DNA of 64,000 bases, taken from NCBI GenBank assembly GCA_050008515.1, contig JBEKMM010000005.1, forward strand, positions 70,888 through 134,887, written 5' to 3'. Numbering within the stretch: the stretch's first letter is position 1; each line of letters begins with the position of its first letter. Source of the stretch: Candidatus Limnocylindrales bacterium. GTDB taxonomy: Bacteria; Chloroflexota; Limnocylindria; Limnocylindrales; CSP1-4. The notes below the pieces were generated by a model. That model was given only the letters and a program-made list of their open reading frames with translations, was not told the origin of the DNA and made no database searches. Of the stretch, positions 1-48,776 are shown in pieces. Position numbers and translations under genes: made by a program.

Positions 1-1639
1 TGCAGACCGGGAAGATCGCCAGGGCCGGCGCCGCGTCAACTTCCGAATCACCCGTCATCTGGCCGGTATAGGGCACGGTGTAGATCGGCGGCCCGATCCA
101 ATCCGGCCGCGACTTCATCTCCAGGATCGGCCCCAGCGGCTTCACGATCTGGGACCGCTCCAGCACCAGCCAGCGCGCGCCGTAGTCGGCGGCCACCTCG
201 CGGATCACGGCCAGCGAGTCGTTGGGCGTGACGACGCCGCCGTGACCGGTGAAGTACTCGAACCCCGCCGGGTCGGCCGAGAGCAGCAGGTCGGTTTCGG
301 GGACGCCGGCCTGGTCGAGGGCCGCGCCGGCCTCGAGCCGCAGGTCGCGATCCTGATCCCAGGACCGTCCCGCGAGGAACGCGAAAGCGCCCGCGTTGAG
401 CAACACCGTAGCCACGGCCGCCGCCACGAAGAGCCGGGCGGCGCGGTCCTCCTGCCAGCCGCGCCGCCGACGCGCGCCCCACGTCGCGACGATCGCGACC
501 CCCTCCAGGCCGATGATGTAAGTGAACGGGACCAGCGCTACGGCCGAATGCAGGAAGGTCCCATAGGGCACGTGGACCGCGAAGATCAGCCCCGCCGCGG
601 CGAAGAGCAGGCCGGCGTAGACGAAGAACGGACCGAAGTCGATCGAGCGGCGGCGAGCCCACCCGCCCGCGAGCGCGAACGGCGCCAGCACGGCCGAGCA
701 GGCGAGGACGGAGAAGACCTGGATCGCCGACACGAGCCCCAGGATACGGCTCGTCAGCAGCGGCCCGAGCCCCTGGCTCAGGAAGCCCGCCAGCGAGGTG
801 TCGCTGGTGACGCTGTTCATCTGCTCGTAGTTCTGGATCAACAGGATTCGGCCCGAGCTCGACGACGGCGAGAAGCTGCCGAAGACGGCCAGCTGGCGCA
901 GATACCAGGGCGCCATGACGACGAGGAAGAGGCCGAAGCAGGCAAACGCGTAGCGCCACGGGATGGCCGGCACTCGGCCGCTCTTCGAGCGCCAGGCCCG
1001 CCATCGATCCCACAGGAAGGCGAGCCCGATCGCGGCGCCCAGCAGCACGCCGTCGTTGCGGGCCAGCGTCGCCAGGCCGACCGTCAGCCCCGCCAGCGCG
1101 AACGATCGGCCGTGGCCCCGCAGCCCGCGAGCGCAGAGCCACAGGGCGGCAGTGCCCAGCGGCTGGAACAGCGAGAAGTTGTCGGGCTGGGCCATGTAGA
1201 TGGCCGCGGCGGCCGGGACGGAGACCGCGATGGCGGCCGCCACGGCGATTCGATCGCCCGCCCCGACTTCCCGGGCCAGGAACCAGGTCATCGGCGCCGC
1301 CACCGCCCCGATGAGCAGGAAGGGGATCGCCGACGCCAGCGGGGTGGGGCCGAGCAGCCACATCGTCGGCAGCTGCACGAGCGAGGCGAGCGGCATCCAG
1401 TGGGCGTTGCTCGGGATCGGCAGCATCGGCTGGGCCGGAATCCGGCCGCCCACGTCCACGAACGACCAGATGAAGTCGATGTTGAAGCCGTGCCCGGCCT
1501 GCAGCGCCCGGGCCACGTCGACGTAGTAGTAGGAATCCGGATACGCCGCGTCGGGGTGCACGCCGAAGAGCACGACCCGAGCGGCCAGGGCGAACGCATA
1601 CAGAGCGATGGGGATCCGCACGGCGTCGCAGCGTAGCAT
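1..1639 (-). CDS. Polytopic GT-C family glycosyltransferase (COG1807 / PMT-ArnT-like), 3'-truncated at the window edge
   Basis: Hand-translated minus-strand frame with ATG at 1639..1637 (RBS-like GGTGGAGTGGG upstream) and no stop before position 1; this frame is absent from the ORF track because it runs off the edge. Product MLRCDAVRIPIALYAFALAARVVLFGVHPDAAYPDSYYYVDVARALQAGHGF..., with many TM helices, an acidic/aromatic first periplasmic loop, and a C-terminal soluble region. Divergent from a Dpm1-like GT2. Confidence 0.55.
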   Translation of the reverse strand, partial: MLRCDAVRIPIALYAFALAARVVLFGVHPDAAYPDSYYYVDVARALQAGHGFNIDFIWSFVDVGGRIPAQPMLPIPSNAHWMPLASLVQLPTMWLLGPTPLASAIPFLLIGAVAAPMTWFLAREVGAGDRIAVAAAIAVSVPAAAAIYMAQPDNFSLFQPLGTAALWLCARGLRGHGRSFALAGLTVGLATLARNDGVLLGAAIGLAFLWDRWRAWRSKSGRVPAIPWRYAFACFGLFLVVMAPWYLRQLAVFGSFSPSSSSGRILLIQNYEQMNSVTSDTSLAGFLSQGLGPLLTSRILGLVSAIQVFSVLACSAVLAPFALAGGWARRRSIDFGPFFVYAGLLFAAAGLIFAVHVPYGTFLHSAVALVPFTYIIGLEGVAIVATWGARRRRGWQEDRAARLFVAAAVATVLLNAGAFAFLAGRSWDQDRDLRLEAGAALDQAGVPETDLLLSADPAGFEYFTGHGGVVTPNDSLAVIREVAADYGARWLVLERSQIVKPLGPILEMKSRPDWIGPPIYTVPYTGQMTGDSEVDAAPALAIFPVC

Positions 1640-1782
1640 CGGCCGGGTCCCACTCCACCGGTACTAACGGCCTATGGGGCCTCCCCGACCTGCGGCGGGG
1701 CCCGCTGGAGGTCGTCCCGGGCGGCGCGGATGGTGGGCTGGAGGTGCTGCGGCGCGCTGGCTCCGCATCTAAACTCGCAACG

Positions 1783-2580
1783 ATGGTTGCCAGCAGCCTG
1801 TCGATCGTTCTGCCCGCGTTCAACGAGGAGGCCCGGCTCGGGCCCGCGCTGGACGAGCTTTTCGCGTATCTCTGCGAAGCGCCGAAGGGTGCGCTGCCCG
1901 AGAAGGTCGACGTGCTCATCGTGGACGACGGCAGCACCGACGGCACGGCCGCGCTGGTTCGGGCGCGGGCCGAATACGTCGGTGAGGTCAGGGCGCCGAA
2001 GGGCGACTGCCCCGAGCTGCGACTGCTGAGCGTCGCGCACGCCGGCAAAGGTTCCGCGGTACGGGTCGGGATGCTGGCCGCGCAGGGCGATCTGATCGTG
2101 TTCGCCGACGCGGATATGGCCACGCCGCCGGACCAGCTGCCCCGGCTGGTCGAGGCGCTGGAGAACGCGGATGTCGCGCTGGGGAGCCGGATCCAGCCCG
2201 ACGGTTCGGACATGCGCGCCTCGCAGCCGCGCTTTCGTAGGCTCGTCGGCAAGCTCTTCCGCCTCGCGGCGCGGATCTGGGTGACCGGCCCGATCGACGA
2301 CACGCAGTGCGGCTTCAAGGGGTTCCGGCGCGACGTGGCGCGCGATCTGTTCGGCCGGCTGCGAATCACGAGCATCGTCTTCGACGTGGACCTGATCTTC
2401 CTGGCCCGGCGGCGGGGCTACCGGATGGCGGTGGTGCCCGTGAGCTGGGCCGATCGACGCGGCTCGCGCATGCACGCCCGCCCGCGGCTGGCCCTTCGCG
2501 TCGGCTGGGATCTGCTGCGCATCAGGTTCATCCACCGCGGCCTCAAGCGGGTGGCCGTCGGGGGCGCGCCGGCGAAATGA
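1783..2580 (+). CDS. GT2 polyprenol-phosphate glycosyltransferase (Dpm1/Ppm1-like dolichyl/polyprenyl-phosphate mannose or glucose synthase)
   Basis: Motifs SIVLPAFNEE, VLIVDDGSTDGT, DAD and QCGFKGF in the 1744..2580 ORF. ATG 1783 chosen (alternative GTG 1744). Confidence 0.8.
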   Translation: MVASSLSIVLPAFNEEARLGPALDELFAYLCEAPKGALPEKVDVLIVDDGSTDGTAALVRARAEYVGEVRAPKGDCPELRLLSVAHAGKGSAVRVGMLAAQGDLIVFADADMATPPDQLPRLVEALENADVALGSRIQPDGSDMRASQPRFRRLVGKLFRLAARIWVTGPIDDTQCGFKGFRRDVARDLFGRLRITSIVFDVDLIFLARRRGYRMAVVPVSWADRRGSRMHARPRLALRVGWDLLRIRFIHRGLKRVAVGGAPAK

Positions 2581-2601
2581 ACGCGCCGCGGTGACCGGGC
2601 G

Positions 2602-3732
2602 ATGACCGAGCCGGTGGCGCAGGCGAGGTCGCGCTCGCGGCTGGCCGGGGCTATCGTGCCCGTCGGTTCGGTGGCGCTGCTGGTCGGAATGCTCGCCCTC
2701 GTTCTCGCGTCCGCGGGTCAGACCCTCGGCTACGACTACCGCTGCTACGAGGGCGCGGCCCAGGCCCTGCGTGACGGCAAGCCGATATACGACGTCACCT
2801 TCTCCGTCAACGTCGGCACGTGCCCGGGCACCTACACCTACCCGCCGGCCTTCGCCGCGGCCCTCGTTCCGTGGCTCCTCCTGGGGGGAGCGGCCGCGGG
2901 GCTGTGGTGCGTGGCGATGGCCGCGTGCTTCCTCGCCGGAGTGGCGCTGCTGCCGGTCCGTCGCGACGTGCGCTGGCTGATCGTGATCGTGGCCGCGCTC
3001 GACTGGCCGCTCCTGTACGCGGTCAAGCTCGGGCAGGTCGAGCCGCTCCTCTTCCTGGGCTTCGCGGCGGTGTGGCGGTGGATGGATCGGGCCGCCGTCG
3101 TGGGGGCGGTGACGGCGATCGGGGCGCTGGTGAAGGTGCAGCCGGCGCTGCTGGCGGTCTGGGCGATCTCTACGGGTCGATTCCGCGCGGCGGCGTTGGC
3201 GGCTGCAGCCGCCGTTGCGCTTGCTGCCGCGGCGACGCTCGTCACCGGCGTGGATGCCTGGGCCACGTACGCCACTCTGCTCCGGGACCTGGGCGGGCAG
3301 CTGACGACGCCCCACAACTTCGCGCCGGGCGCGGTCGCCCACATGGCCGGAGCGCCGGACCCGGTGGCCGCGGCCATCCAGCTCGCCTCGGCGGCTATGG
3401 CAGTGGCGGCGCTCCTGGTCGCGTGGCGATTCGCGAGCCCCGAGCTAAGCCTGCAGGTCACGATCGTGGCCAGCCAGCTCATCTCGTCGCCGCTGCGCGA
3501 CCACTACGCCGTGCTGCTCTTGCTGCCGACGGCCTGGCTCGTACAGCGCGGTCGAGCGTGGGCGGTCGTCTTCCCGCTTGTGGGCTGGATCGCGCTCTTC
3601 GGCAGCGGCGCCTGGCTCCCCGCGGCCAGCATCCCGATCACCTTCTTCGCCTGCCTGGCGGTGCTGCTCTGGGAGGCGCTGCTCGAACGGCGCGCTCGAA
3701 CGGCGCGCTCGAACGCCGCGCAGCCCGCATGA
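2602..3732 (+). CDS. Polytopic membrane protein, DUF2029/GT87-like (PimE-type polyprenol-P-sugar dependent glycosyltransferase family)
   Basis: 376 aa with about 9 TM helices and a TYTYPPAFAAALVPW motif. It starts 22 bp after the GT2 stop, consistent with an operon. Confidence 0.55.
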   Translation: MTEPVAQARSRSRLAGAIVPVGSVALLVGMLALVLASAGQTLGYDYRCYEGAAQALRDGKPIYDVTFSVNVGTCPGTYTYPPAFAAALVPWLLLGGAAAGLWCVAMAACFLAGVALLPVRRDVRWLIVIVAALDWPLLYAVKLGQVEPLLFLGFAAVWRWMDRAAVVGAVTAIGALVKVQPALLAVWAISTGRFRAAALAAAAAVALAAAATLVTGVDAWATYATLLRDLGGQLTTPHNFAPGAVAHMAGAPDPVAAAIQLASAAMAVAALLVAWRFASPELSLQVTIVASQLISSPLRDHYAVLLLLPTAWLVQRGRAWAVVFPLVGWIALFGSGAWLPAASIPITFFACLAVLLWEALLERRARTARSNAAQPA

Positions 3733-3834
3733 CCGCCTGAGGTCCGGGCCGCCGCCTGCGCCGCGCCCCGCCGGCCCTCGCGCCGCAAGGTTGCGCCGGC
3801 AAGCAGGCCGGGGGCGTGGTGCTATCCTCGGCGA

Positions 3835-5010
3835 GTGACCATCCCCTCCATCTCGGCCGGCGGGCCTGCCCGTCCGGACGAGCAGCGGCGCATCCTCGTC
3901 GCCCGCCGCCGAGCCTTCGATGCCATCGCGGGCGAGACGTGGGACGCGCTCGTCGGTCTGACCCCGGCCGCGACTCCCTTCTCGCGCCACTGCGTGCAGC
4001 GGGCGTGGTGGGACGCCTACGGCACCACGGCCCACGACCAGACGATGGTCGTCGTGGACGAGGCCGCCCCGGAGGTGATCGTCGGGATCGCGCCCCTGAT
4101 GCATCGCCACGAGCTGGAGCCGGGGGACGTGGCGGCGCGCACGACGATCCGCCATCAAGTCGGCCCGGTCCTCCGACCCGTGCCCGCCTCCGCGACCGCG
4201 GTCTTCTTCGGCGCCTCGTACCACGCCGACTATGCCACGATCCTGGCGGCGCCCGCGGACCTGCCGGCGGTTTGCGATGCCGTGGTGGCGGCCCTCGCCG
4301 CTGAAGATCCGTCGCGCTGGGACGTCGTGGACCTGCGCCGCCTCCGCGCCGGCGACCCGGCCACCGATGCGCTGGTCGCCGCCTTCGAGTGGGTCGCCCC
4401 GCGCGGCTGCTGGCTGGTGACGCGCGAGCAGGAGGAGGTCTGCCCGGTCCTGACGCTCCCGGCCGGCCTCGACTTCGAGGGCTACCTCGGGACTCTCGAC
4501 AAGAAGGAGCGCCACGAGATCCGGCGCAAGATCCGCCGGGCGGAGGCCGCCGGGCCCATCGCCCTGACAAGGTCGGCCGACCCCTTTGCGGACCTGGAGG
4601 CGTTCATCGACCTGCATCAGAAGCGCTGGGGAGAAAAGGGCCTCTTCCCCGCGACAGCGGGCGGAGCCGCGAGCCGCCGTTTCTTCGCGGAACTGTTCGA
4701 GAGCTGCGCGCCGACCGGAATCGTCGAGCTGGACTTCCTGACGGTCGGAGGGCGCCGAATCGCGGCCGGAGTGATCCTCGACGACGGCCACACCGTTTAC
4801 TACTACAACGCCGGCGTCGAGCCGGATGCCAGAGAGCTTTCTCCCGGAGTGGTCATGGTCGCGTCCTACATCCAACGAGCCATCGAGCTGGGTCGCACCC
4901 GCCTCGACTTCATGAGGGGCAACGAGCCCTACAAGTACGAATGGGGCGCGGTCGACGAACCGATCGAACGGCTGCTCGTCCAGCGGACGGCCGCACCGGA
5001 GGGCCGCTAG
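3835..5010 (+). CDS. GNAT-fold acyltransferase, CelD/BcsL / FemAB-like (Acetyltransf_6-type)
   Basis: 391 aa with GTG start. The C-terminal LDFMRGNEPYKYEWGA and overall length are typical of CelD/FemX-like proteins in glycan loci. Confidence 0.6.
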   Translation: MTIPSISAGGPARPDEQRRILVARRRAFDAIAGETWDALVGLTPAATPFSRHCVQRAWWDAYGTTAHDQTMVVVDEAAPEVIVGIAPLMHRHELEPGDVAARTTIRHQVGPVLRPVPASATAVFFGASYHADYATILAAPADLPAVCDAVVAALAAEDPSRWDVVDLRRLRAGDPATDALVAAFEWVAPRGCWLVTREQEEVCPVLTLPAGLDFEGYLGTLDKKERHEIRRKIRRAEAAGPIALTRSADPFADLEAFIDLHQKRWGEKGLFPATAGGAASRRFFAELFESCAPTGIVELDFLTVGGRRIAAGVILDDGHTVYYYNAGVEPDARELSPGVVMVASYIQRAIELGRTRLDFMRGNEPYKYEWGAVDEPIERLLVQRTAAPEGR

Positions 5011-5105
5011 CGATGGGCGCCGACGAAGACCTCCACGAGGAGCCCTGTGCCGAGCAGGACGGACGCGGGCCACTCCCCGGTGGGCGGGTTCGGGTCGTGG
5101 AGGTC

Positions 5106-6218
5106 ATGGCCACCGGCACCAACGGCGGAGCGCAAGAGCACGTCTTCTCCCTCGCCTCGCGGCTGAACTTGGCCCGCTACGACGTCAGGGTCGTCTCGCT
5201 CTCGCACGGCAGCAGCGTCCGCCGGTTGCAGAAGGCGGGCATCGAAGCGTCGGTGATCGACGAGCCGGACGACCGCCTGGCCGTTCTGGCGCTGGCCGAG
5301 GAGCTGGCCGCCTTCGAGCCCGAGGTCGTCCACAACCACATGTATCGCGCCGAGGTCGTGGGCACGCTGGCGGCGCTGCACCTGGGCGAGAAGGGTTGCC
5401 GCCGCCCGGCCGTCATCTCGACCGTGCATTCGAGCCGAGTCCGCTGCGTCGAGGACCGCGAGAAGCTCCGCCAGCTCACGCCGCTGATGGATCGCCTCAT
5501 CGTCGTGTCCAAAGCGATCGAGCGGAAGATCGCCGACGAGGGGCGCCGTGGCGCGCCGGTCAGCCTCATCTACAACGGCGTGGACCTGCAGCGCTACAAC
5601 CACCAGCAGCCGTGCTGCACGCTCCACGAGGACTACAAGATCGACCCCGATGCCCCGATCGTCGGCGTCGTGGCTAGACTCGAGGCCGAGAAGGGCCACC
5701 GCACGCTGCTCGACGCCTGGCCGCTGGTCCTCGCCGTCGTCCCCAATGCGTGGCTTCTCGTCGTCGGCGAAGGCTCGGAGCGCGACTCGCTCGAGGCCCA
5801 GGCCGACATCCTGGGCATCTCCGGGAGGGTCGTCTTCACCGGCCGCCGCGAGGACGTGCCGGCGGTCACGGCCGCGCTGGACATCTCGGTCCTGCCGTCG
5901 TACCGCGAGGCCCAGGGCCTGAGCGTTCTCGAGGCGATGGCGCTAAGCCGCCCGGTCGTGGCGTCGGCGGTGGGCGGCATTCCGGAGATGATCGAGGACG
6001 GGGTCAGTGGGCTGCTCGTCCCGCCCCACGACTGCGACGCGCTGGCGGCGGCGATCATCCGGCTGCTGACCGATCACCCGCTGGCCGACACGGTCGCCCG
6101 CCGCGGCCACGATCTGGTCCACGACCGCTTCTGCATCGAGCTGATGGTCAAGGCCGTCTCGGACAAGTACGACGAGGCCGCGGTCCGGATCCGCGAGTCG
6201 AAGAGCGTCGCGCGGTAG
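5106..6218 (+). CDS. GT4 (group 1) glycosyltransferase
   Basis: Only the C-terminal 370 aa of ORF 4389..6218 look like protein. N-term MATGTNGGAQEHVFSLA, EAMALSRPVVASAVGGIPE (E-X7-E) and GVSGLLVPP. Start ATG 5106 (alternative GTG 5097). Confidence 0.8.
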   Translation: MATGTNGGAQEHVFSLASRLNLARYDVRVVSLSHGSSVRRLQKAGIEASVIDEPDDRLAVLALAEELAAFEPEVVHNHMYRAEVVGTLAALHLGEKGCRRPAVISTVHSSRVRCVEDREKLRQLTPLMDRLIVVSKAIERKIADEGRRGAPVSLIYNGVDLQRYNHQQPCCTLHEDYKIDPDAPIVGVVARLEAEKGHRTLLDAWPLVLAVVPNAWLLVVGEGSERDSLEAQADILGISGRVVFTGRREDVPAVTAALDISVLPSYREAQGLSVLEAMALSRPVVASAVGGIPEMIEDGVSGLLVPPHDCDALAAAIIRLLTDHPLADTVARRGHDLVHDRFCIELMVKAVSDKYDEAAVRIRESKSVAR

Positions 6219-6247
6219 CGCTTCGCCATGGCTTCGCCACGGTGTCG

Positions 6248-7135
6248 TCAGGGCGCCGTCGCCCGCCAGTAGCGTTCGGCCGGCTCCGTCCCGGCCACCG
6301 TGCCGACCCGCACGGCCCGGGCTCGAATGACGGCGGCCATCTCCGCGTCGCTGCCGAACAGTCGATCGATCTGGCTGGCGTAGGCTCGGATGCCGGCGAG
6401 CTTGCGGTCAGCCAGGTCGCCGCTCAGCTCCACGCACTCTGGGACCAGCCTGATCCAGGGCGAGAGCCCGGCGAGCTGGTCGGGCCTGAGCTGCTCGAGG
6501 CTGTGGAACTCGGCCACCGCGGCGTACGGCAGATCCTCGTAGAAGACGAGCTGACAGTGGCGCTTCGGCGGGATCCCGCCATGCGGGTAGCGCCCACCCC
6601 CCAGCACGATGATGCCGGCCTGGTGGACCAGGCGATGGTCCACGTGCCCGCCGACGGCCAGCGGCAGGTACGCCACCGCGGGGCGCAGGGAGTCCAGGGC
6701 GGCCTCCAGGCACTTGTAGGGCGGCAGGTCGTCGGGCCTGGGCGGGCCCATCAGCTGGTCCTCGCCCTCGTAGCCACGGAACACCGCGTCGGGCTCGTCC
6801 GCCCGGAACAGCCGCGCACCGACGGTGACGGCATAGGCCGCGTCCTCCGCCGCGCGCTCCCTCATCACGTCGGCGGGGGCGAGCGAACCCCGCCGCTCCC
6901 CGAAGCCGAGGGCCTGGCGCTGGTATGGCGTCAGCTCCGCCCGCGAGCCGGCCCCGGAGTAGACGGTGGCGATGCCGACGCTCTCGCCGCGCTTCCGCAG
7001 CCGCGCAACCAGCCCACCGCAGGAGAGTGCCACGTCGTCGGGGTGAGGGGCGACGAAGAGGTGCGTCACCGGCGGTCCCGTGAAAGCCTGCCGGCAAAGC
7101 TCCGGCCCGCGGATCTCCCGGAAGAGGTCGGTCAC
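6248..7135 (-). CDS. PIG-L / LmbE family N-acetylglucosaminyl deacetylase
   Basis: HPDDVALSCGG motif and HVDH. Start re-assigned to GTG 7135..7133, which overlaps the pcm stop in a GTGA arrangement. The upstream 150 aa of ORF 6248..7585 is Arg-rich junk. Confidence 0.75.
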   Translation of the reverse strand: MTDLFREIRGPELCRQAFTGPPVTHLFVAPHPDDVALSCGGLVARLRKRGESVGIATVYSGAGSRAELTPYQRQALGFGERRGSLAPADVMRERAAEDAAYAVTVGARLFRADEPDAVFRGYEGEDQLMGPPRPDDLPPYKCLEAALDSLRPAVAYLPLAVGGHVDHRLVHQAGIIVLGGGRYPHGGIPPKRHCQLVFYEDLPYAAVAEFHSLEQLRPDQLAGLSPWIRLVPECVELSGDLADRKLAGIRAYASQIDRLFGSDAEMAAVIRARAVRVGTVAGTEPAERYWRATAP

Positions 7136-7854
7136 GGCCGCTGCCCGCGGAACCGCCCCGGCCAGTGGCGGCCCGCTCGCGCCAGCGCCTGCTCGTCGTA
7201 AGCCGCGGCGCCGATGAGCGGCACGAAGACGCAGCCACCGAAGGTCCGCTCCTCGAAACCCTCCCCGCGACGGATCACCTGGGTCAGCTCCTGGCCGCCG
7301 AGCGGCCCGACGGGTATGACCAGCCGGCCGCCGTCGGCGAGCTGCCGGCGCAACTGGTCGGGCACTCGGGGCGCGGCGGCGGTCACGATGATGCCTTCGA
7401 ACGGGGCTCCCAATCTCCAGCCGACACTGCCGTCGGCGACCTCGATCCGAATGCGATCGGCCAGCCGCGAGCCCGCAGCCAGGCCCGGCTCGTCCGGGCC
7501 CGTGTCGTTCAGGCTCGGAGAAGCCAGTCGAACGCGAGCGGCGGACGCAAGCTCGGGGTGGCGCTCGAGCGACAGCACCTCGCATCCGATCCGGGCCAGG
7601 ACCGCCGCTTGATAGCCCGAGCCGGTGCCGATCTCAAGGACCCGCATCCCCGCATGCGGCTCCAGGAGCTCGGTCATGAGGGCGACGATGTACGGCTGGC
7701 TGATCGACTGGCCCGAGGCGATCGGCAGGGCCCCGTCGCAGTACGCGTCGTCAACGAGGTTCGGCGGCAGGAACAGCTCGCGCGGCAGCTCGCCCATCGC
7801 GGCCAGGACGCGCTCGTCGCGAATGCCGCGGCCGCGGAGCTGGCGCTCGACCAT
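7132..7854 (-). CDS. pcm: Protein-L-isoaspartate O-methyltransferase
   Basis: MVERQLRGRGIRDERVLAAMGELPRELF... VLEIGTGSGYQAAVLA ... ATG at 7854..7852. The upstream part of ORF 7132..8256 was rejected. Confidence 0.85.
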   Translation of the reverse strand: MVERQLRGRGIRDERVLAAMGELPRELFLPPNLVDDAYCDGALPIASGQSISQPYIVALMTELLEPHAGMRVLEIGTGSGYQAAVLARIGCEVLSLERHPELASAARVRLASPSLNDTGPDEPGLAAGSRLADRIRIEVADGSVGWRLGAPFEGIIVTAAAPRVPDQLRRQLADGGRLVIPVGPLGGQELTQVIRRGEGFEERTFGGCVFVPLIGAAAYDEQALARAGRHWPGRFRGQRP

Positions 7855-7994
7855 CTCCGTGCGCAGCCGGCGGGCATCCTCGGCATCCACCCGTCGAAGA
7901 TACGCCCTCGCCGGGCGCGCGCACGCGAAGATGTGGGCGAGAGCGGGCTCCCGAGCGGCGAGTTCCGGTTCCGGTGGTTGGCCGGCCGAGTCTG

Positions 7995-8513
7995 CTACGA
8001 GGCGCTGGCGCTCGGCGCGGCGGTCGGCGTCGCTGCCGGCGTCGGGGTCACCACCGGCGTGGGCGTCGCGGCGGGCGTCGGCGTTGCCACGGGCGTGGGC
8101 GTCGCCACGGGCGTGGGAGTCGGCACCGGCGTTGGGGTCGCGGGCGGGGGCGAGTACGTCTGCAGGTTCAGCGGCGCAAGCGTGGGTGCGGGGCCCGCGG
8201 GGATGATGCCCGCCACGTACGAGCCGACCAGGATTCCGACCAGGCCCAGCGCGCACACCAGGGTGAACAGCGCCGAAGCGCGGTCGTCGACGTAGACCCG
8301 CTCGTGCGTGGCTTTTACCGAGCCCTGGGCATGGACCTCTTCCTGGGCCGGCGAACGACCGAAGCCGAAGCGACGCCCGGGCCTGCTGGGTTCGAACGCA
8401 GCCCCAGCCCCGGCCTCGTCGCCGGCTTCGAGGTCTTCTTCGAACTCTTCTTCGCCCGGCATGAATTCGTTGGGCTCGCCCTGCTCGAGGGTGTCCTTGT
8501 CCTGGTCCGACAT
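7995..8513 (-). CDS. Small single-pass membrane protein with acidic N-terminus and Pro/Thr/Val-rich C-terminal repeat tail
   Basis: Coherent C-terminal 172 aa of ORF 7995..9845 (MSDQDKDTLEQGEPNEF...). One TM (ALFTLVCALGLVGILVGSYVAGII), then (A/V)TPTP repeats encoded by a GC-rich tandem DNA repeat at about 8000-8150. Confidence 0.5.
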   Translation of the reverse strand: MSDQDKDTLEQGEPNEFMPGEEEFEEDLEAGDEAGAGAAFEPSRPGRRFGFGRSPAQEEVHAQGSVKATHERVYVDDRASALFTLVCALGLVGILVGSYVAGIIPAGPAPTLAPLNLQTYSPPPATPTPVPTPTPVATPTPVATPTPAATPTPVVTPTPAATPTAAPSASAS

Positions 8514-8662
8514 GCCCTGGCTTCGCTCCTGTGTTGGTTCGGCACCGGCGTGCCTTGTTCGCCGGGTACGGGCTGCCCGCACGGTGACGGGTCGGGCGCG
8601 ACCCTCCCGCGGCAGTTTAGCCGGATCGTCCGGTTCTCGCGTGGCGACGCGGCCCGACCGCT

Positions 8663-10480: not shown

Positions 10481-10483
10481 CTG

Positions 10484-29955: not shown

Positions 29956-30124
29956 GGCTGCCTCCAGACGGGGTGCGATTCGCGGCTGAGTCGTCGATCA
30001 TGACCCGTTCGGCCGATCCGGGAGGGCGCTTGATCCCTCCTTGCGCCCGGAGCCCGCAGGGCGCGACGACGGCAGCGACCATCCAATCGAACGCCGCGGG
30101 CCCGCCAATCCCTACAATCAGCCC

Positions 30125-30799
30125 ATGGAGAAGCCGCAGAAGTCCGTCTCGCTCGCAGATCTGACCGTCGGCAAGTTCGTAGAGCGCCTCTCCTCGGCTG
30201 AACCCGTTCCCGGAGGAGGAGCGGCCTCGGCCCTGGCGGCGGCGCTGGGCGCGGCGCTGGTATCCATGGTCGCGGGCCTGTCGCTGGGTCGGTCCAAGTA
30301 CGCGGCCTACGAGGCCACGCTGGCCCGGGCCGACGCCGCGGGCAAGGAGCTCGCGGCGGAGTTGCTCGCTCTCTCCGATCGAGACGCGGAAGCCTATGCG
30401 GGCTATTCCGCCGCGCTCAAGCTGCCGCGGGACACGCACGAGCAGAGGGAGGCGCGGCGGTCGGCAATCCGGGCGGCGGCGCGGGTGGCGTCGGACGCGC
30501 CGTGGGATTGCGTTCGGGCGTGCCTGCGGCTGGCCGAGATCGCGGAGGCGATCGCCGGGCGAAGCAACGTCAACGCCTCGAGCGACGTGCTGGTCGCGGC
30601 GCTGCTCGCCGAAGCGGGCGCCAGGGGAGCGGCCGAGAACGTCCGCATCAACCTGCCGTCCACAGGCGACGAGGAGTACTCCGAGGCGATGAGCCGCCAG
30701 CTCGACGAGACGCTCCACGACATCTCGGCGCTGGCCTCCCGGACCCGCGAGATCGTCCTGTCGGGCGGGCCCCAGGACCCGGAGGCCGAGGCGCCGTGA
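30125..30799 (+). CDS. Cyclodeaminase/cyclohydrolase family protein (FTCD C-terminal domain / FchA-like)
   Basis: ATG 30125. FVERLSSAEPVPGGGAASALAAALGAALVSMVAGLS. Stop overlaps folD GTG (GTGA). Confidence 0.75.
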   Translation: MEKPQKSVSLADLTVGKFVERLSSAEPVPGGGAASALAAALGAALVSMVAGLSLGRSKYAAYEATLARADAAGKELAAELLALSDRDAEAYAGYSAALKLPRDTHEQREARRSAIRAAARVASDAPWDCVRACLRLAEIAEAIAGRSNVNASSDVLVAALLAEAGARGAAENVRINLPSTGDEEYSEAMSRQLDETLHDISALASRTREIVLSGGPQDPEAEAP

Positions 30800-38775: not shown

Positions 38776-40704
38776 TCAGCGACCCGCCGGATTCACCTCG
38801 AGCTGCCAGCCAGGCGGTATGACCATCGAGCAGGTCGTGGTTCGCTGGTCGACGCACCTGGCGAACGGCGCCCAGTCCGACGCCGCTGTCGGGCTGAGGT
38901 GGTAGCCGCTCAGGATGCCGCCTGCCAGGAGAAGGCAGGCCAGGCCGGCCGCGGCCCGTGTGAATTGTCCCGCGGGCCGGGAGATGAGCAGCGCCACGTA
39001 GAGAACGGCGATCGGGGCGAGGAAGTACCGGGGTGTGGCGCCGGGCCCGAGGAGCGTCCGAATGCTGAGGTCTATGCCGGTCATGGCCCACAGCGCTAGG
39101 ACCCAACCCCCGAGGAGGGTGAGCAGGAGCGCGGCCGCTTCGAGTCGAGGAAGGCGGATCCAGACGGCGACGAGCGCCGCAGTAAGCACTATCGCCACGA
39201 ACCACACCAACAGGTGAGGGGACGCGGTCGCCAGGTTCGTGGGCCCCAGGGCGGCCATGGCAGGTACGCGCTTGATGAGTACCAGGAGCGCGCTCACGGG
39301 TTGGGCCATGCCGGCGATGTTCCCGCGCCTGCTGGATGCGAGAAGGAAGCCGACCTGGACGAGAACGCCGGCCACCGCCACTCCGAGGAGGAGGACCGAA
39401 TGCCGGGATCGGTTTCGCAGTGCTCGGACCGCAAGGCTCGGGAGGCAGTAGAGCGCCGCGAACCCGGACAGCGCGGTCAGCGCGGTGAACGCGACCTCCC
39501 CGGCCTTGAGCTTCCGGCTCACCGGGTCGTAGAACATACCGAGCAGCACCAGGCCGATGCCCATCCACCAGTGGGCATTGGCCAGCACCAGGTAGGTCTC
39601 CCCGATCCCGGGTGCGCACAGGAGCGCCAGCAGGCACAGGACGCGCATGTTCGGCGAAACCGGGATCCGCCATCGGGACGAGAGCACGAAGCCGCACGAG
39701 ATGACGGCGGCAGCCGCCGCTACGGCGGCGTACACGGCCGGTTGTACGGAGATGGGCAGGGGCGCGGCCAGGCTGGCCACGACGCGCTGAAGCAGGAAGA
39801 ACTGGCCGTTGTACGGCTCGAACACGGCTCCCCAGCCGCGCTCGATCGCATCCTTGAAGAAGATCGTGCCGTCCTCCGCGAAGAACACGGGGGACGCAAG
39901 GCCGGTCGGCCTTCGCAGGATGAAGAGGTATACCGCGCCGGCCAGGATCGCCAGGGTCGATACAGGTGACGAGGGCGCCATCAGCCTCGAGAACTGCCCG
40001 CGCAGCGCCTCGAAGTACCAGTGGAGGTAGTGGGGCAGCCACTTGCGCAGCTTGAAGTTGCTCTTGCCGGCGGTCCGATCGCGCCACGTCGTTGGTACCT
40101 CAGCCAGCCTGCGGCCGGCGAGGGTCGCCTTGACCGAGAGCTCCAGGGCGAGCTCGAAGCCCGCCGTGCTCTCGATCGAGACGGTGTCGAGGAAGCGGCG
40201 GCTGTAGAGCTTGAAATTGTTGGTCGGGTCGTGGATCGGGACCCTGGCGAGCCAGTGCAGCGAGAGGCCGGCGGCACGGCTCATCAGGCGCTTCAGCAGT
40301 GGGCCGCCGACCTGCCTGCCGCCGCGCATGTACCTGCTCGCGGCCACGACGTCCGCGCCGTCGCGGGCCAGCGCCACCATGCCGTCCACCACCTCGGGCT
40401 CATCGGAACCGTCGGCCATGGAGATCAGCACGTAAGGCGCGCGGGCGGCGGCGAGGCCCGCCTTCATGGCGTTGAGGACTCCCCGACCGAGCTCGTTGCG
40501 CAGCGGCCGGAGCTCGGGTATCTCGGCCTGGAGGGCCCGCACGACCGGTACCGTCGTGTCCTCGTCGAAGTCGTAGACGACGAGGATCTCGCACGGCTCG
40601 TGGATGCCGGCGGCGAGCGCCCGGAGGACCGGCGCGACCGCCTCGCCCTCGTTGTACACGGGGATGACGACGGACAGCTCGGGCGCCTTGACGGCGGCCC
40701 TCAT
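38776..40704 (-). CDS. GT2 glycosyltransferase (Dpm1-like) fused to a ~410-aa C-terminal polytopic membrane domain
   Basis: LSVVIPVYNE, ILVVYDFDEDTT, and ISMADGSD at the N-terminus, followed by at least 10 TM helices. Confidence 0.7.
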   Translation of the reverse strand: MRAAVKAPELSVVIPVYNEGEAVAPVLRALAAGIHEPCEILVVYDFDEDTTVPVVRALQAEIPELRPLRNELGRGVLNAMKAGLAAARAPYVLISMADGSDEPEVVDGMVALARDGADVVAASRYMRGGRQVGGPLLKRLMSRAAGLSLHWLARVPIHDPTNNFKLYSRRFLDTVSIESTAGFELALELSVKATLAGRRLAEVPTTWRDRTAGKSNFKLRKWLPHYLHWYFEALRGQFSRLMAPSSPVSTLAILAGAVYLFILRRPTGLASPVFFAEDGTIFFKDAIERGWGAVFEPYNGQFFLLQRVVASLAAPLPISVQPAVYAAVAAAAAVISCGFVLSSRWRIPVSPNMRVLCLLALLCAPGIGETYLVLANAHWWMGIGLVLLGMFYDPVSRKLKAGEVAFTALTALSGFAALYCLPSLAVRALRNRSRHSVLLLGVAVAGVLVQVGFLLASSRRGNIAGMAQPVSALLVLIKRVPAMAALGPTNLATASPHLLVWFVAIVLTAALVAVWIRLPRLEAAALLLTLLGGWVLALWAMTGIDLSIRTLLGPGATPRYFLAPIAVLYVALLISRPAGQFTRAAAGLACLLLAGGILSGYHLSPTAASDWAPFARCVDQRTTTCSMVIPPGWQLEVNPAGR

Positions 40705-41741
40705 AGCGGGGTGGCCGCCGGTTCGAGCGGGCGATCCGGCCCGGAGGCCTCATCGGCCAGCCGGCCCAGGCCCACGTCCATGGCGGCCAGCGAGACCGCT
40801 CCCGCGATCGCGACGGGCAGCACGGACATGACGTGGGCAACCACCGCCAGCGCCAGCGCCGGGGCGGCCGCCACACCGAAAGCTCCGGCGGTTGTCGCCG
40901 CGGCCAGCTCGAAGGTGCCCACGTAGCCGGGCGCCGAAGGAAGCGCGGTCCCCAGCACCGTGACCGCTCCAATGAGGAGCGCGGCCGCTGGGCTCACCGA
41001 GATGCCGATCGCGCGCGCCGCGAGCCAGAAAGTGGTCGCATCGAGCATCCAGCACGCCGCGCTGATCACGACGGCCATGAAGACGGCTCGCGAGCGGCTG
41101 GGCCGGTCGATGCCGCGGGCGAAGTTGGCTAGACGCACCAGCATCGGCTCGGCCCGGGCGGCGCCGGGGAGATGGCCGAGCAGTCCGCGCAGTATCCGCA
41201 CCAGTGGCCCAAAGCCGACCACGATCAGGGCCGCCGTCAGAGCGGTAGCGGCCAGCGCGACGAGCGCCGTCGACTGCACGATCCAGCCTGGGGCGTTGAC
41301 GAGGGCCGCGGCCGCGAAGGCGACGACCGCCAGGGTCGCCGTGTCGACGATGCGCTCGAGGACGACCGAGCCGAAAGCCTCGGCCGCGTCGAGCTTCTCG
41401 CGACGGGCCACGAGGTACGCCCGGATGGGCTCGCCCAGCCGGGCGGGGAGGACGGCGTTGCCGAGATAGCCCACGAGCAGCACCGGGGCGATCCGCCCGA
41501 GTCGAATCCGGCCGCCGCCGGGCGGAGGGGGAAGGAGAAGGCGCCAGCGCACCGAGCGCAGCGTGACCTGCGTCGCCACGACCGCCAGGCAGGCCGCGAC
41601 CGGGATCGGGTTTGCGCCGGCGAGCAGCTTGACGCTGGCCCCCAGGTCCACGGAGCGGAGCACGAGCCAGAGGGACGCGAGGCTGACGAGCAGCCCAACT
41701 ACGCGAATGACTCGACCGTGCCTCCGACCGCCCATGCTCAA
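40701..41741 (-). CDS. Flippase-like / lysylphosphatidylglycerol-synthase-TM-region family membrane protein (UPF0104)
   Basis: 346 aa, about 8 TM. ATGA overlap with the GT2 fusion gene. This family is commonly paired with GT2 polyprenol-P-sugar synthases. Confidence 0.55.
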   Translation of the reverse strand: MSMGGRRHGRVIRVVGLLVSLASLWLVLRSVDLGASVKLLAGANPIPVAACLAVVATQVTLRSVRWRLLLPPPPGGGRIRLGRIAPVLLVGYLGNAVLPARLGEPIRAYLVARREKLDAAEAFGSVVLERIVDTATLAVVAFAAAALVNAPGWIVQSTALVALAATALTAALIVVGFGPLVRILRGLLGHLPGAARAEPMLVRLANFARGIDRPSRSRAVFMAVVISAACWMLDATTFWLAARAIGISVSPAAALLIGAVTVLGTALPSAPGYVGTFELAAATTAGAFGVAAAPALALAVVAHVMSVLPVAIAGAVSLAAMDVGLGRLADEASGPDRPLEPAATPL

Positions 41742-41762
41742 CTCATCGGGCTCCGCCGCCCA

Positions 41763-42782
41763 TCAGATTCGCCCGGCCTCGTACTCGCCCTTGATCCAGG
41801 GGATCACCTCGTCGAGCATCGTGTCCAGGCTCGTCGTCGCCTCGAAGCCGAGCACCTCTCGAGCCTTGCGGACGTCCGGGACGCGCATCTGGACGTCGTG
41901 CTCGAAGGGCGGATCCGTCACGTATCGGAACGGCCGGTTGCCGTTGATCTTGCGCCAGATCGTCTGAGCGAGGTCGAGCACCGTGGTGCTCTGGGCCGTC
42001 GATAGGTTGAAGTCCTCGTTGATCGCCTTGGGGCTCTCGACGGCGAGGCGGATGCCGTGGGCGAGATCGCCGCCGTACGTGTAGTGGCGAACCTGGTTGC
42101 CCTCGCCCAGGATGTGGAGCGGGTCCTGGCCCTTGAGCACCTTGGCCACCAGGTCGGGCACGACGTGGCTCATCGCCAGCTTGACGTTGCCCGACATCAC
42201 GTCGGAGTCGCGGAGCGCACGGCGCTCGCCGATGCCGACGCAGTTGAAGGGGCGCACGATCGTCGACGGGAGGCGGTACTGCTCCAGGGCGCCCATGGCG
42301 AAGTACTCCGACGCGAGCTTCTGGAAGCCGTAGGTGGAGACGGGCGGCGGGCTGGTCAGCTGCGCTCCCTCGGGCGTGGGGAAGACCGTCGCCGATTCGA
42401 AGACCATTGAGGACGAGATCACCGTCACGCGTTCGAGATGGCCGTTGCGGTGGGCTTCGATCGCCCCGCGGAAGGTCGAGGCGAGGATGGCCTCGTTCTC
42501 GGCGAGCAGGTCGAAGGCGAACTCGTGGAAGTAGCTGATGCCGCCGATCATCGCCGCCGCGGCCACGACCTGGTCGCAGTCGGCGGCCAGCTCTCGGACC
42601 AGCGCCTCGTCCTTGGCGTCGCCCTCCACGAAGCGGTACCGCGGGTGGCCGTCGTAGCTCTTGGCTGTCGGGCCGTACTTGCTGAAGTTGTCCAGCCCGA
42701 CGACGGTATGGCCGGCCTCGAGCAGCTCGGGGACGAGGTACCCGCAGATGAACCCGGCCGCCCCGGTGACGAGGATCTTCAC
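41763..42782 (-). CDS. NAD-dependent epimerase/dehydratase (SDR family)
   Basis: MKILVTGAAGFIC Rossmann motif and YGFQK (YxxxK). Confidence 0.8.
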   Translation of the reverse strand: MKILVTGAAGFICGYLVPELLEAGHTVVGLDNFSKYGPTAKSYDGHPRYRFVEGDAKDEALVRELAADCDQVVAAAAMIGGISYFHEFAFDLLAENEAILASTFRGAIEAHRNGHLERVTVISSSMVFESATVFPTPEGAQLTSPPPVSTYGFQKLASEYFAMGALEQYRLPSTIVRPFNCVGIGERRALRDSDVMSGNVKLAMSHVVPDLVAKVLKGQDPLHILGEGNQVRHYTYGGDLAHGIRLAVESPKAINEDFNLSTAQSTTVLDLAQTIWRKINGNRPFRYVTDPPFEHDVQMRVPDVRKAREVLGFEATTSLDTMLDEVIPWIKGEYEAGRI

Positions 42783-42804
42783 TTTGCCTCCGATGAAGCG
42801 GGCG

Positions 42805-44040
42805 CTACAGGCGGATGCTGCCGAGCGCGCCCCAGATGTCGACTACCTCACGCCCGGTGAGGTCCAGGTCGCGATAGACGCGATGCGGGGCGCCCAGCAC
42901 GAGGATCTCCGTCTCGGCAAGGACCTTCTCCAGGGGCACGAGGCGCGGATCGTTGACGTAAGGATCGGTGCAAAGCACTCGAGCGCCCGACCAGACCAGG
43001 AGCTTTCGCAGCTTGTAGCTCAGCGACGAACGAACGTCGTCGGACTCGGACTTGAAGGCCATGCCCAGCACGCCCACCGCTCTGCCGCGCAGGCTTCCGT
43101 AGCGCCGCTCCATCGCGTGGACCATGTAGGCGGGCAGCCCCTCGTTGACCTGCATGGCCGACTGGCCGAGCGGGAAATGGTCCGAGGTGAAAGCCGCCAG
43201 CTGCATGGTGTCCTTGAGCAGGCACGGGCCGGCCGCGAAACCCGGTTTGGGCAGATCGGCGGCGCGCGGGTAGTCGGTCCGGATCGCGTCGAGGACACGG
43301 CTGTAGTCGACTCCCTCGGCATGGGCGATCTCGAAGAACTGGTTGGCCACCGCGAACTTCATGTACCGCCAGGCGTTCGTGAAGAGCTTGGCGAGCTCGG
43401 CCTCCCTGGTCGAAGTGCGGATGACCCTGAACGCGAGACGGCAGTAGAGCGCCTCGGCCCGATCGCCGGCGGCGTCGTCGTCCGAGCCCACGATCTGGGG
43501 CAGCGTGGCCAGCTCCTCGAGCGCGTGCCCCTCGGCTATCCGCTCCGGGCAAAAGGCGACATCGACCTTGCAGCCGCGGGCCGCGAATGCGCCGGCGACG
43601 TATTCGCTTGTGCCCGGGTACACCGTGCTGCGCAGGATCACGAGCGTGCCCGGCTGCAGGTGCTGCGCAATCTGATCGACGGTCCGCTCGAAGATGGTCA
43701 TGGACGGGTTCAGGAACTCGTCGATCGGCGTGCCGACGACGACGATCACCTGGTGCGTCCGCTCGAGCAGCTCCGAGCTTGCGCTGAGCTCCAGCCGGCC
43801 CGTGGGCAGCAGCTCGGCCAGGAGTTCCTGGGCCCCGTTCTCCATGAACGGCATCTCTCCGCGACCGATCCTGGCGAGCGTGGCTTCCGCTATGTCGACG
43901 ATGCCGACCCGCAGCCCGGCCTTCGCGAACGCCAGGCTCAAGGGCAATCCGACGTGCCCGCCTCCCCCGAGGACGACGACATCCAGCTCAGGTTCGTGCC
44001 CTTCCCGAGGCTTGCCGGTAGCGGACAGCGGCATGGTCAT
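42805..44040 (-). CDS. Nucleotide-sugar (UDP-glucose/GDP-mannose) dehydrogenase family protein
   Basis: VVVLGGGGHVG Rossmann motif, and GFAAGPCLLKD (catalytic Cys region). ATG 44040 with AGGAG RBS. Confidence 0.8.
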   Translation of the reverse strand: MTMPLSATGKPREGHEPELDVVVLGGGGHVGLPLSLAFAKAGLRVGIVDIAEATLARIGRGEMPFMENGAQELLAELLPTGRLELSASSELLERTHQVIVVVGTPIDEFLNPSMTIFERTVDQIAQHLQPGTLVILRSTVYPGTSEYVAGAFAARGCKVDVAFCPERIAEGHALEELATLPQIVGSDDDAAGDRAEALYCRLAFRVIRTSTREAELAKLFTNAWRYMKFAVANQFFEIAHAEGVDYSRVLDAIRTDYPRAADLPKPGFAAGPCLLKDTMQLAAFTSDHFPLGQSAMQVNEGLPAYMVHAMERRYGSLRGRAVGVLGMAFKSESDDVRSSLSYKLRKLLVWSGARVLCTDPYVNDPRLVPLEKVLAETEILVLGAPHRVYRDLDLTGREVVDIWGALGSIRL

Positions 44041-44146
44041 CCACACACTCCTGGACAGATCAGCGGTCACCGCACTCTACCAGAGCGAGGTCTCCCCTGG
44101 CCCGCTCGCCGTCGCATGCAGACCGCGGCGGTCGTGCCGTGCGAAC

Positions 44147-47064: not shown

Positions 47065-47066
47065 AG

Positions 47067-48764: not shown

Positions 48765-48776
48765 CGCGCCGGCGCC

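Follow-up and report, generated by a model that had tools for sequence, protein, structure and literature searches.

The window analysed here is a 64,000-nucleotide stretch of a Candidatus Limnocylindrales genome (phylum Chloroflexota; contig JBEKMM010000005.1, positions 70,888 to 134,887 of the forward strand). Its first 7,135 nucleotides carry six genes, encoding glycosyltransferases, an acyltransferase of the GNAT superfamily and a PIG-L/LmbE-family deacetylase. A first-pass annotation had read them as a pathway like those for glycosylphosphatidylinositol (GPI) anchors, phosphatidylinositol mannosides (PIM) or mycothiol. The DNA has a G+C content of about 71%, and raw lists of open reading frames (ORFs) are full of spurious frames; a frame plot of the G+C content at third codon positions (GC3) picks one frame per stretch. 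This plot backs the reading frame of all six genes, in agreement with the genes of the first-pass annotation, and Pfam confirmed all of its family assignments. A metagenome contig (ERZ27250144 k141_522941, ENA) is 100% identical to the window. It is labelled locus L001 here, and window position 1 corresponds to its position 8219. By the source names of GNAT and GT-C homologues, this contig belongs to the class Ca. Limnocylindria of the Chloroflexota. The full-length GT-C, the start of the GT4 and the ends of pcm were taken from gene calls on this contig. The genes are as follows.

2..1639 (listed as 1..1639), minus strand: GT-C A, a polytopic PMT_2/ArnT-like glycosyltransferase (PF13231, GC3 frame)
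1783..2580, plus strand: GT2 (B), soluble and Dpm1/Ppm1/ArnC-like, 265 amino acids (aa) (PF00535, E = 2e-26)
2602..3732, plus strand: GT87 (C), a PimE-like GT-C, 376 aa (PF09594, E = 6.5e-19)
3835..5010, plus strand: Fem-like dupli-GNAT (D), 391 aa, cytoplasmic (PF13480 'CelD/BcsL', Acetyltransf_6, E = 5.7e-33)
5013..6218, plus strand: GT4 (E), 401 aa (PF00534/PF13692, ~1e-41)
6248..7135, minus strand: PIG-L/LmbE-family deacetylase (F), 295 aa, convergent on the GT4 (PF02585, E = 1e-15)
7132..7854, minus strand: pcm, protein-L-isoaspartate O-methyltransferase, 240 aa by the gene caller (PF01135, 1.3e-51; cut-offs of TIGR00080 and NF001453 passed)

The GT2, GT87, GNAT and GT4 genes are co-directional and are separated by gaps of 21, 102 and 2 bp. 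The start of the GT4 gene had been placed at 5106. The ATG at 5013, 2 bp past the GNAT stop, is more likely, since it was chosen by the gene caller and the orthologues conserve residues upstream of 5106. The GTGA overlap reported at first pass is present; it joins the stop of pcm to the start of the PIG-L gene, with pcm upstream in the same operon. The pcm gene is probably not part of the pathway. The truncation of GT-C A is real but small: the protein has 560 aa on the identical contig, and the window holds codons 1-546, so that only the last 14 codons lie outside it. The GNAT, the GT4 and the PIG-L protein would act at the cytoplasmic face; none of the three has a signal peptide or a transmembrane helix. 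A sigma-70 promoter scan of 1..8600 gave no promoters, and terminator-like sites occurred at chance level, within genes; such a scan is uninformative for this phylum. Scans of the window for tRNA genes and Rfam families gave no match.

Conservation was surveyed in 80 loci anchored on the GNAT and taken from one-genome-per-species reference genomes, almost all of them Limnocylindria or Chloroflexota metagenome-assembled genomes. GNAT identity in these loci ranges from 88% to 36%, and the GNAT alignment reached relatives at 34% identity. All window proteins were mapped onto the loci, and the neighbour counts use only loci with enough flank. The co-localisation on which the first-pass interpretation leaned is conserved, but unevenly. 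The GT4 gene lies directly downstream of the GNAT gene in 72 of 75 loci, with a median gap of 35 bp. Within 9 kb upstream of the GNAT, the GT2 is present in 38 of 54 loci, the GT87 in 34 of 54 and GT-C A in 9 of 54. A convergent PIG-L gene within 10 kb of the GNAT occurs in at least 21 of 50 loci, which is a lower bound, as the observed distances extend to the 10-kb limit of the flanks. The genes for GNAT, GT4 and PIG-L (the trio) are contiguous in 11 loci, including those of Limnocylindrus. A GT2 or GT87 gene stands immediately before the GNAT in the window and in 16 other loci; in 5 loci the gene in this position is the GT2. Insertions of 1-9 kb part the trio and the GT2/GT-C module in most loci.

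In Limnocylindrus (L075-L079; GNAT identity 36-39%), the most distant genus, the GNAT, the GT4 and the convergent PIG-L gene are contiguous, and all other neighbours differ. On one side of them lie MreB and a xylose-isomerase-like gene; the other side has an MMPL transporter, a lipocalin-like protein and a phosphoesterase. In L075 (12227-16995, minus strand), and also in L077 and L079, the PIG-L gene forms one co-directional run with the genes for the CrtC/lipocalin-like protein and the MMPL-family transporter. This run hints that the product of the trio is an exported lipid. Among four sampled GNAT relatives at 34-37% identity, two have a GT4 gene directly after the GNAT, in unrelated contexts, and the other two do not. 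The Limnocylindrus trio, the recurring GNAT-GT4 pairs and the insertions of glycan genes go beyond inherited gene order.

The GNAT matches only PF13480 and Mig-14 in Pfam, with no match to PF02388 (FemAB) or PF04339 (FemAB_like). In a confident structure model it shows a tandem-GNAT fold whose nearest relatives are FemX, FemA and the aminoacyl-phosphatidylglycerol synthases (Fem/MprF-type), clearly ahead of CoA-dependent GNATs. A conserved Arg/Lys-rich helix (residues 223-235) is compatible with the use of aminoacyl-tRNA but is no proof of it. The N-acylation considered at first pass is thus to be read differently: the modelled fold points to aminoacyl-tRNA-dependent aminoacylation rather than to fatty N-acylation. 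Compared with FemX/FemA/FemB, the MprF-type aminoacyl-phosphatidylglycerol synthases and the aminoacyl-tRNA-dependent peptide synthases Sbb17/Sba18, the GNAT is only 10-15% identical. It belongs to PF13480 and not to PF02388, it has no fused flippase domain, and it has an obligate GT4 partner, which is found in none of these families. A role as a peptidoglycan-branching Fem enzyme is thought unlikely because of this near-obligate partner and the island context.

Some PF13480 relatives of the GNAT (among P0164, P0197, P0205 and P0265) are about 800 aa long and carry two tandem PF13480 regions. Should each region be a dupli-GNAT, as the window protein is, these relatives would have four GNAT domains. 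Weak FemAB or FemAB_like matches occur on three tandem-domain relatives. A GNAT-GT4 fusion of the Rosetta stone type was rejected, since the relatives of about 800 aa are tandem PF13480 duplications. A 489-aa protein with PF13480 and GT4 regions looks like a metagenomic read-through.

The GT4 keeps an ordinary E-x7-E motif. It reached 160 bits with the NCBIfam model for the PEP-CTERM 'stp2' type (cut-off 409), 131.3 bits with BshA (TIGR03999; 273.7), 94.3 bits with MshA (TIGR03449; 462.5) and 60 bits with the GlcN_PG_synth model (480). The nearest solved relatives in the PDB are BshA-like enzymes (~4e-22), PimB' (1.5e-17) and PimA (2e-15). The PIGA domain is not among the seven Pfam families that the GT4 matches. 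Residues 201-204 form a CCTL motif with two adjacent cysteines, which is at least 90% conserved in 52 GT4 orthologues and unusual among GT4 enzymes.

The PIG-L protein scored 58.9 bits with PF02585 (threshold 28.2), and its HPDD and HVDH motifs, for metal binding and catalysis, are intact and conserved. It reached 36.4 bits with the BshB1 equivalog (TIGR04001; cut-off 182.5), in a match that covers residues 25-62 only, and 17.1 bits with MshB (TIGR03445; 224.35). The best relative in the PDB is the lipoglycopeptide N-acetylglucosamine (GlcNAc) deacetylase Dbv21 (2e-8). The PIG-L gene is kept in more distant relatives; in L004, L007, L009 and L062 it was recently lost or moved elsewhere. Among the findings that would overturn it, the first-pass annotation had named that the GT4 and the PIG-L protein are the canonical mshA/mshB or bshA/bshB orthologues, located here by chance. 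Such orthology was rejected, as all NCBIfam equivalog scores lie far below their cut-offs.

The GT2 carries the DDGSTDG and DAD motifs and has no transmembrane segment, in which we take it to resemble Ppm1 of Mycobacterium smegmatis. The first-pass description of the GT2 as Dpm1/Ppm1-like agrees with its nearest solved relatives in a PDB sequence search, dolichol-phosphate mannose synthase (DPMS) of Pyrococcus furiosus (5mlz, 6e-14) and ArnC (~6e-13). The top NCBIfam matches are ArnC (the best), dolichyl-phosphate-hexose transferase and PpgS, all far below cut-off. By its family the GT2 is a predicted polyprenyl-phosphate-sugar synthase, the sugar not being readable from its sequence. The gene stands just before that for the GT87 and is transcribed away from GT-C A; a GT2 of the Dpm1/ArnC type lies beside GT-C genes, as in three-component glycosylation (GtrB/ArnC-type GT2, flippase and GT-C).

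The GT87 scored 69.1 bits with PF09594 (gathering score 25), and its orthologue profile matches the PimE structure 9dm5 at E = 1.7e-17. Residues D45, Y49, Q145, K178 and H301 are equivalent to D58, Y62, Q163, K195 and H321 of PimE, and D45 is invariant in 15 sequences. In PimE, D58 is the catalytic base, an Asp at the tip of JM1; mutation of D58, Y62, Q163, K195 or H321 abolishes or reduces activity, and W319A abolishes it (PMC12041525). The position of W319 is taken by R299 in the window copy and by Trp in most orthologues, the other key residues being kept. The PimE-type equivalog NF009915 was matched at 35.1 bits (cut-off 413). The GT87 belongs to the GT87/PimE family, yet is not a PimE orthologue.

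GT-C A has about 11-12 hydrophobic segments and matches PMT_2 (PF13231) with 31 bits (threshold 26.1). With PF02366 (PMT) it reached 19.5 bits (22.7), and the MIR domain is absent from its Pfam matches, so that membership of PMT/GT39 is not supported. Its homologues are labelled GT39 or ArnT-like in the source annotations. As single sequences, GT-C A, GT87 and GNAT had no match in the PDB; the profile of GT-C A gave only spurious globin matches there and reached no solved GT-C. An AlphaFold2 model of GT-C A was built from close homologues and is weak (predicted local distance difference test, pLDDT, of 62). The top 12 Foldseek matches of this model contain nothing but GT-C enzymes; AglB (4.8e-5) and ArnT (5.9e-5) come first, and the TM scores are about 0.4. 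They include AglB, ArnT, STT3, ALG3, AftD, Pmt4, AftA and ALG9, with Pmt4 and Pmt1/2 behind AglB and ArnT. The GT-C fold class of the protein is weakly supported by this model; its subfamily is not. Left of window position 1, GT-C A is translationally coupled by a GTGA overlap to the gene for X568 (L001:6472-8178, minus strand). X568 is a 568-aa polytopic protein, 26% identical to GT-C A (BLASTP 7e-20) and without a Pfam match, and GT-C A is therefore one of a tandem paralogue pair. Beyond X568, L001 carries a HisKA_3 kinase, a GerE-type regulator, another kinase and Flp/Tad pilus genes.

Recurrent neighbours were identified by clustering about 1,000 ORFs of the 80 loci and scanning the cluster representatives with Pfam. 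Class-wide, the GNAT-GT4 pair lies in the middle of a run of co-directional GT-C, GT2 and sugar-nucleotide genes, not at its edge. The additional genes of this island in the relatives are as follows.

39 loci, directly after the GT4: 488-aa polytopic protein, no Pfam match (e.g. L042:2712-4178), not in the window
27 loci, downstream of GNAT-GT4: epimerase/dehydratase
26 loci, downstream of GNAT-GT4: nucleotide-sugar dehydrogenase
24 loci: fused membrane protein of about 715-775 aa, MFS/spermidine-synthase-like (e.g. L037:3082-5376), not in the window
at least 22 loci: extra GT87 copies
21 loci: 414-aa polytopic protein, no Pfam match (e.g. L068:4080-5324), not in the window
13 loci: PIG-V-like GT-C (PF04188)
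11 loci: ALG6/ALG8-like GT-C (PF03155)
further extras in relatives: a second Dpm1-like GT2, a further PMT_2 GT-C, a methyltransferase and a UPF0104 flippase-like protein

The typical order, as in L043, L022, L026 and L031, is PIG-V-like, GT87, GT2, GT87, polytopic protein, fused MFS/spermidine-synthase-like protein, GNAT and GT4. These are followed by polytopic protein, dehydrogenase, epimerase or methyltransferase, and GT2, and by the convergent genes for the ALG6-like protein, PIG-L and pcm. L093, which was looked up independently with precomputed Pfam labels, has the same gene content. The window holds a compact version of this class-wide, GT-C-rich envelope-glycan island of Ca. Limnocylindria. 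The arrangement, which had been called unusual, is typical of this class, as a short form of one that generally has many more GT-C genes.

Counterparts of several island genes were found in the window about 35 kb from the locus.

38776..40704, minus strand: second GT2 (polyprenyl-phosphate-hexose-transferase-like) fused to a polytopic membrane domain of about 400 aa (PF00535, 2e-20)
40701..41741, minus strand: UPF0104/LPG_synthase_TM flippase-like membrane protein (PF03706, 1.7e-49; TIGR00374, 82 bits against 43.2)
41763..42782, minus strand: NAD-dependent sugar-nucleotide epimerase/dehydratase (PF01370, 1.9e-36; no NCBIfam equivalog)
42805..44070, minus strand: nucleotide-sugar 6-dehydrogenase (PF03721/PF00984/PF03720; TIGR03026, 273 bits against 189.8)

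The second GT2 has a hydrophobic C-terminal part and matches the NCBIfam models for dolichyl-phosphate-hexose transferase, AglJ, ArnC and PpgS, all below cut-off. It is 72% identical to the GT2 paralogue downstream of GNAT-GT4 in the relatives. The dehydrogenase shares 71% identity with the family that occupies this position in 26 related loci; its nearest equivalogs, UDP-N-acetylmannosamine dehydrogenase and UDP-glucose dehydrogenase, were matched below cut-off. The epimerase is only 29% identical to the representative of the family found in 27 related loci. The block 38776..44070 (minus strand) appears, by these similarities, to have been relocated in this genome, its counterparts lying directly downstream of GNAT-GT4 in the relatives.

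We propose, with a probability of about 45%, that the trio assembles an amino-sugar core inside the cell, linked to a lipid and aminoacylated, and that GT-C enzymes extend this core outside with polyprenyl-phosphate sugars made by the GT2. The first, cytoplasmic reaction would be the transfer of an N-acetylhexosamine (HexNAc) from a nucleotide sugar to a membrane-bound acceptor by the GT4. In the second step, the PIG-L/LmbE deacetylase would free the amine. The third step would be catalysed, also in the cytoplasm, by the Fem-like dupli-GNAT, which would re-acylate the amine; the likeliest acyl group is an amino acid delivered by aminoacyl-tRNA. The core would then be flipped, and the PimE-like GT87 and the two PMT_2/ArnT-like paralogues would extend or decorate it outside. 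The donors of these GT-C enzymes would be polyprenyl-phosphate sugars made at the inner face by the Dpm1/Ppm1-like GT2. The observations comprise the genes, their families and catalytic motifs, their arrangement in operons and their conservation across loci; the sugars, the acceptor, the order of the steps, the use of aminoacyl-tRNA and the action of both modules on one molecule are what we infer from them. The logic of adding, deacetylating and re-acylating an amino sugar is known from mycothiol, bacillithiol, teicoplanin-type lipoglycopeptides, lipid A and Nod factors. The amino-glycolipids glucosaminyl-phosphatidylglycerol (GlcN-PG) and HNHDRG use the first two steps, HexNAc addition and deacetylation (PMC12713373).

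A close parallel in overall layout is the pathway for mycobacterial PIM, lipomannan and lipoarabinomannan, with the GT4 enzymes PimA/PimB', the acyltransferase PatA, the GT2 Ppm1, the GT87 PimE and the GT-C enzymes MptA/MptB. Both would follow a two-compartment logic in which GT4 steps and acylation take place in the cytoplasm, a Dpm1-type GT2 supplies donors, and GT87 and other GT-C enzymes act outside (PMC12041525, PMC3485146). The GT87 shares five residues with PimE (the equivalents of D58, Y62, Q163, K195 and H321), whereas the equivalent of W319 is Arg and NF009915 was missed. The present locus offers no evidence of phosphatidylinositol, has a Fem-like dupli-GNAT instead of a PatA-type acyltransferase, contains a PIG-L deacetylase, which the PIM pathway lacks, and belongs to another phylum, Chloroflexota. 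The likeness to mycothiol (MshA-MshB-MshC-MshD) and bacillithiol (BshA-BshB-BshC) biosynthesis is that the GlcNAc added by a GT4 loses its acetyl group to a PIG-L/LmbE enzyme, and its amine then receives an amino acid. Although the nearest solved relatives of the GT4 are BshA enzymes, all four equivalog thresholds are widely missed. The enzyme adding the amino acid would be a Fem-like aminoacyl-tRNA-dependent transferase instead of the CysRS paralogue MshC or BshC, and the genes lie in a membrane-glycan island, not among redox genes. In the GpgSDF system of Pseudomonas aeruginosa (GlcN-PG) and the HexSDF system of Clostridioides difficile (an amino-glycolipid), a GT4 adds HexNAc to a membrane lipid, followed by a deacetylase and a UPF0104 flippase-like protein (PMC12713373). 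The Limnocylindria island, too, includes a UPF0104 gene; the product of the window copy shares its family with GpgF, encoded in the GlcN-PG operon (PMC12713373). In these systems, however, the deacetylase is of the COG3233 type, not PIG-L, and there is neither a Fem-like GNAT nor a GT-C.

Several observations weigh against the proposed pathway. The donor and the acceptor of the GT4, including the donor sugar, cannot be read from its sequence. The orthologue profile of the GNAT matched FemX only marginally (E = 1.2), and a modelled fold does not prove the use of aminoacyl-tRNA. The PIG-L gene is co-transcribed with pcm rather than with the transferases, and in L004, L007, L009 and L062, four of the closest relatives (GNAT 75-88% identical), no PIG-L gene lies between GT4 and pcm. 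No flippase gene, including a small one of the GtrA/ArnEF-like kind, was found in 1..7135; the UPF0104 flippase-like gene, at 40701..41741, is a neighbour of the second GT2. Genes that are clearly unrelated (pcm, MFS, HD-domain, and histidine kinase/response regulator genes) likewise keep their order throughout the class, L058 and L070 being examples. The co-localisation is in part inherited gene order, and synteny is weak evidence for the looser links because such genes are syntenic too. The Limnocylindrus locus lacks pcm, GT2 and GT-C genes, so that the trio stands alone there. The distant PF13480-GT4 pairs are without GT-C genes, and their GT4 partners are not clear orthologues of E. The compact loci L070 and L091 have no GT4. 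Since the trio stands alone in Limnocylindrus and the distant pairs lack GT-C genes, the two modules may be independent.

A somewhat unlikely explanation takes up this last point, namely that two independent systems lie side by side by inherited gene order. One would be a glycosylation system in which polyprenyl-phosphate sugar from the GT2 is used by GT-C enzymes on secreted or membrane proteins (O-glycosylation) or on a wall polymer; the other, GNAT-GT4 with or without PIG-L, would make a separate product. This product could be a charge-modifying aminoacylated amino-glycolipid, like GlcN-PG or lysyl-glucosyl-diacylglycerol, or a soluble aminoacyl-amino-sugar conjugate. The solitary Limnocylindrus trio, the PF13480-GT4 pairs in unrelated contexts, the insertions that part the modules and the equal synteny of unrelated genes all agree with it. 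A Pro/Thr-rich membrane protein encoded nearby (7995..8513) would lend itself to O-glycosylation by a PMT-like GT-C, and there is a precedent for a GT4, a deacetylase and a UPF0104 flippase making GlcN-PG (PMC12713373). This explanation is opposed by the central position of GNAT-GT4 in co-directional GT-C/GT2/sugar-nucleotide runs throughout the class, by the GT2 or GT87 gene found immediately before the GNAT in the window and 16 other loci, and by compact loci that retain exactly these genes.

Distinctly improbable is a route resembling ArnC-ArnD-ArnT, which modifies lipid A with 4-amino-4-deoxy-L-arabinose, or PpgS-Rv3779. The GT2 would make a polyprenyl-phosphate-HexNAc, the PIG-L enzyme would deacetylate it as ArnD does, the GNAT may aminoacylate it, and a GT-C (A, X568 or GT87) would transfer the cationic sugar to an envelope polymer outside, with the GT4 only helping to build the acceptor. 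In the known systems, a GT2 likewise loads an N-acylated amino sugar on polyprenyl phosphate, which is de-acylated and then transferred by a GT-C outside; mycobacterial PpgS makes polyprenyl-phosphate-N-acetylgalactosamine, which Rv3779 uses to place galactosamine on arabinogalactan (PMC3485146). ArnC is the best NCBIfam match of the GT2 and PpgS is also matched, but the scores fall far below the equivalog cut-offs. By the fold of its weak model, GT-C A may be ArnT-like. L070 and L091 consist of GT-C / GT2, GNAT / PIG-L, without GT4 or GT87; the GT2 directly precedes the GNAT in 5 loci, and the GT-C operon runs on into a HisKA_3/GerE-type two-component system. However, the most constant partner of the GNAT is the GT4 (72/75), not the GT2 (38/54), and Limnocylindrus retains GNAT-GT4-PIG-L without a GT2. 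The locus also has PIG-L instead of ArnD (CE4) and neither ArnA nor ArnB, and its Fem-like GNAT and GT4 have no counterpart in the Arn or PpgS systems.

It is highly improbable that the pathway is literally of the GPI, PIM or mycothiol/bacillithiol type, with GlcNAc being attached to inositol, phosphatidylinositol or malate and, once deacetylated, receiving an acyl group or mannose: the family parallels are real (GT4, PIG-L and acyltransferase, plus GT2 and GT87), BshA, PimB' and PimA are among the nearest solved relatives of the GT4 and the GT87 keeps the PimE catalytic residues, but the cut-offs of MshA, BshA, MshB, BshB1 and the PimE-type NF009915 are all missed, the GT4 is without a PIG-A domain, the locus holds no MshC-, MshD- or BshC-like gene, the window gives no sign of inositol metabolism and the acyltransferase is Fem-like. 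As a statement of family membership, this interpretation is largely refuted by the profile scores. Nothing at the locus identifies GlcNAc, mannose, inositol or a thiol. Overall, the first-pass interpretation is partly supported: its pathway logic is plausible, the co-localisation is partly conserved and the specific chemistry (glucosamine, mannose, N-acyl group) is unproven.

Each half of the proposed pathway follows a known logic; what appears new is the combination of a Fem-like GNAT, a GT4 and a PIG-L enzyme. A module of Fem-like PF13480, GT4 and PIG-L proteins, or the island as such, was not found described in the accessible literature and the curated family libraries. It is unlikely, though worth stating, that the trio constitutes an undescribed route in which an amino acid is transferred from aminoacyl-tRNA to an amine freed on a glucosaminyl lipid or a soluble glucosamine conjugate. 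Such a route would give a lipoglycan anchor extended by GT-C enzymes, or a tRNA-dependent analogue of mycothiol or bacillithiol.

The remainder of the window is ordinary chromosome, with genes for DnaB, LexA, a DinB-type polymerase, ArgRS, formate-tetrahydrofolate ligase, histidine utilisation and phosphoketolase. A horizontally acquired island was rejected, as the region has a uniform GC content and the synteny of the locus extends throughout the class. The 172-aa ORF at 7995-8513 (minus strand), between pcm and the MFS gene, encodes an acidic N-terminus, a single transmembrane helix and a Pro/Thr-rich tail (ATPTPVPTPTPVATPTPVATPTP) and is syntenic in close relatives. Pro/Thr-rich tails are typical O-glycosylation substrates of PMT-like GT-C enzymes. 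At 8663-11818 (minus strand) lie the genes for a DUF5317 domain fused to an MFS_3 transporter (605 aa) and for an HD_5/HD-domain protein (444 aa), both syntenic with the island throughout the class. One-carbon and histidine-utilisation genes form two groups, at 30041-33461 (FTCD C-terminal domain and formate-tetrahydrofolate ligase) and at 46950-52703 (urocanase, formiminotransferase and amidohydrolase).

Glycosyltransferase clusters are common, and the function assigned here stays a prediction. Limnocylindria (formerly Ellin6529) are abundant in soil and freshwater, and we know of no cultured, biochemically studied member of the class. The make-up of the Chloroflexota envelope is still debated. 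A class-wide, GT-C-rich island would suggest that another phylum, too, assembles a lipoglycan or wall glycan of the actinobacterial style outside the membrane. The near-invariant pair of Fem-like GNAT and GT4 is a testable candidate for a new tRNA-dependent reaction of sugar or lipid aminoacylation, which, if true, would provide the first function for a branch of the poorly understood PF13480 ('CelD/BcsL') family. Should the undescribed route prove correct in its lipid-linked form, its product would be an aminoacylated amino-glycolipid of a new class, made by a major soil lineage that is uncultured.

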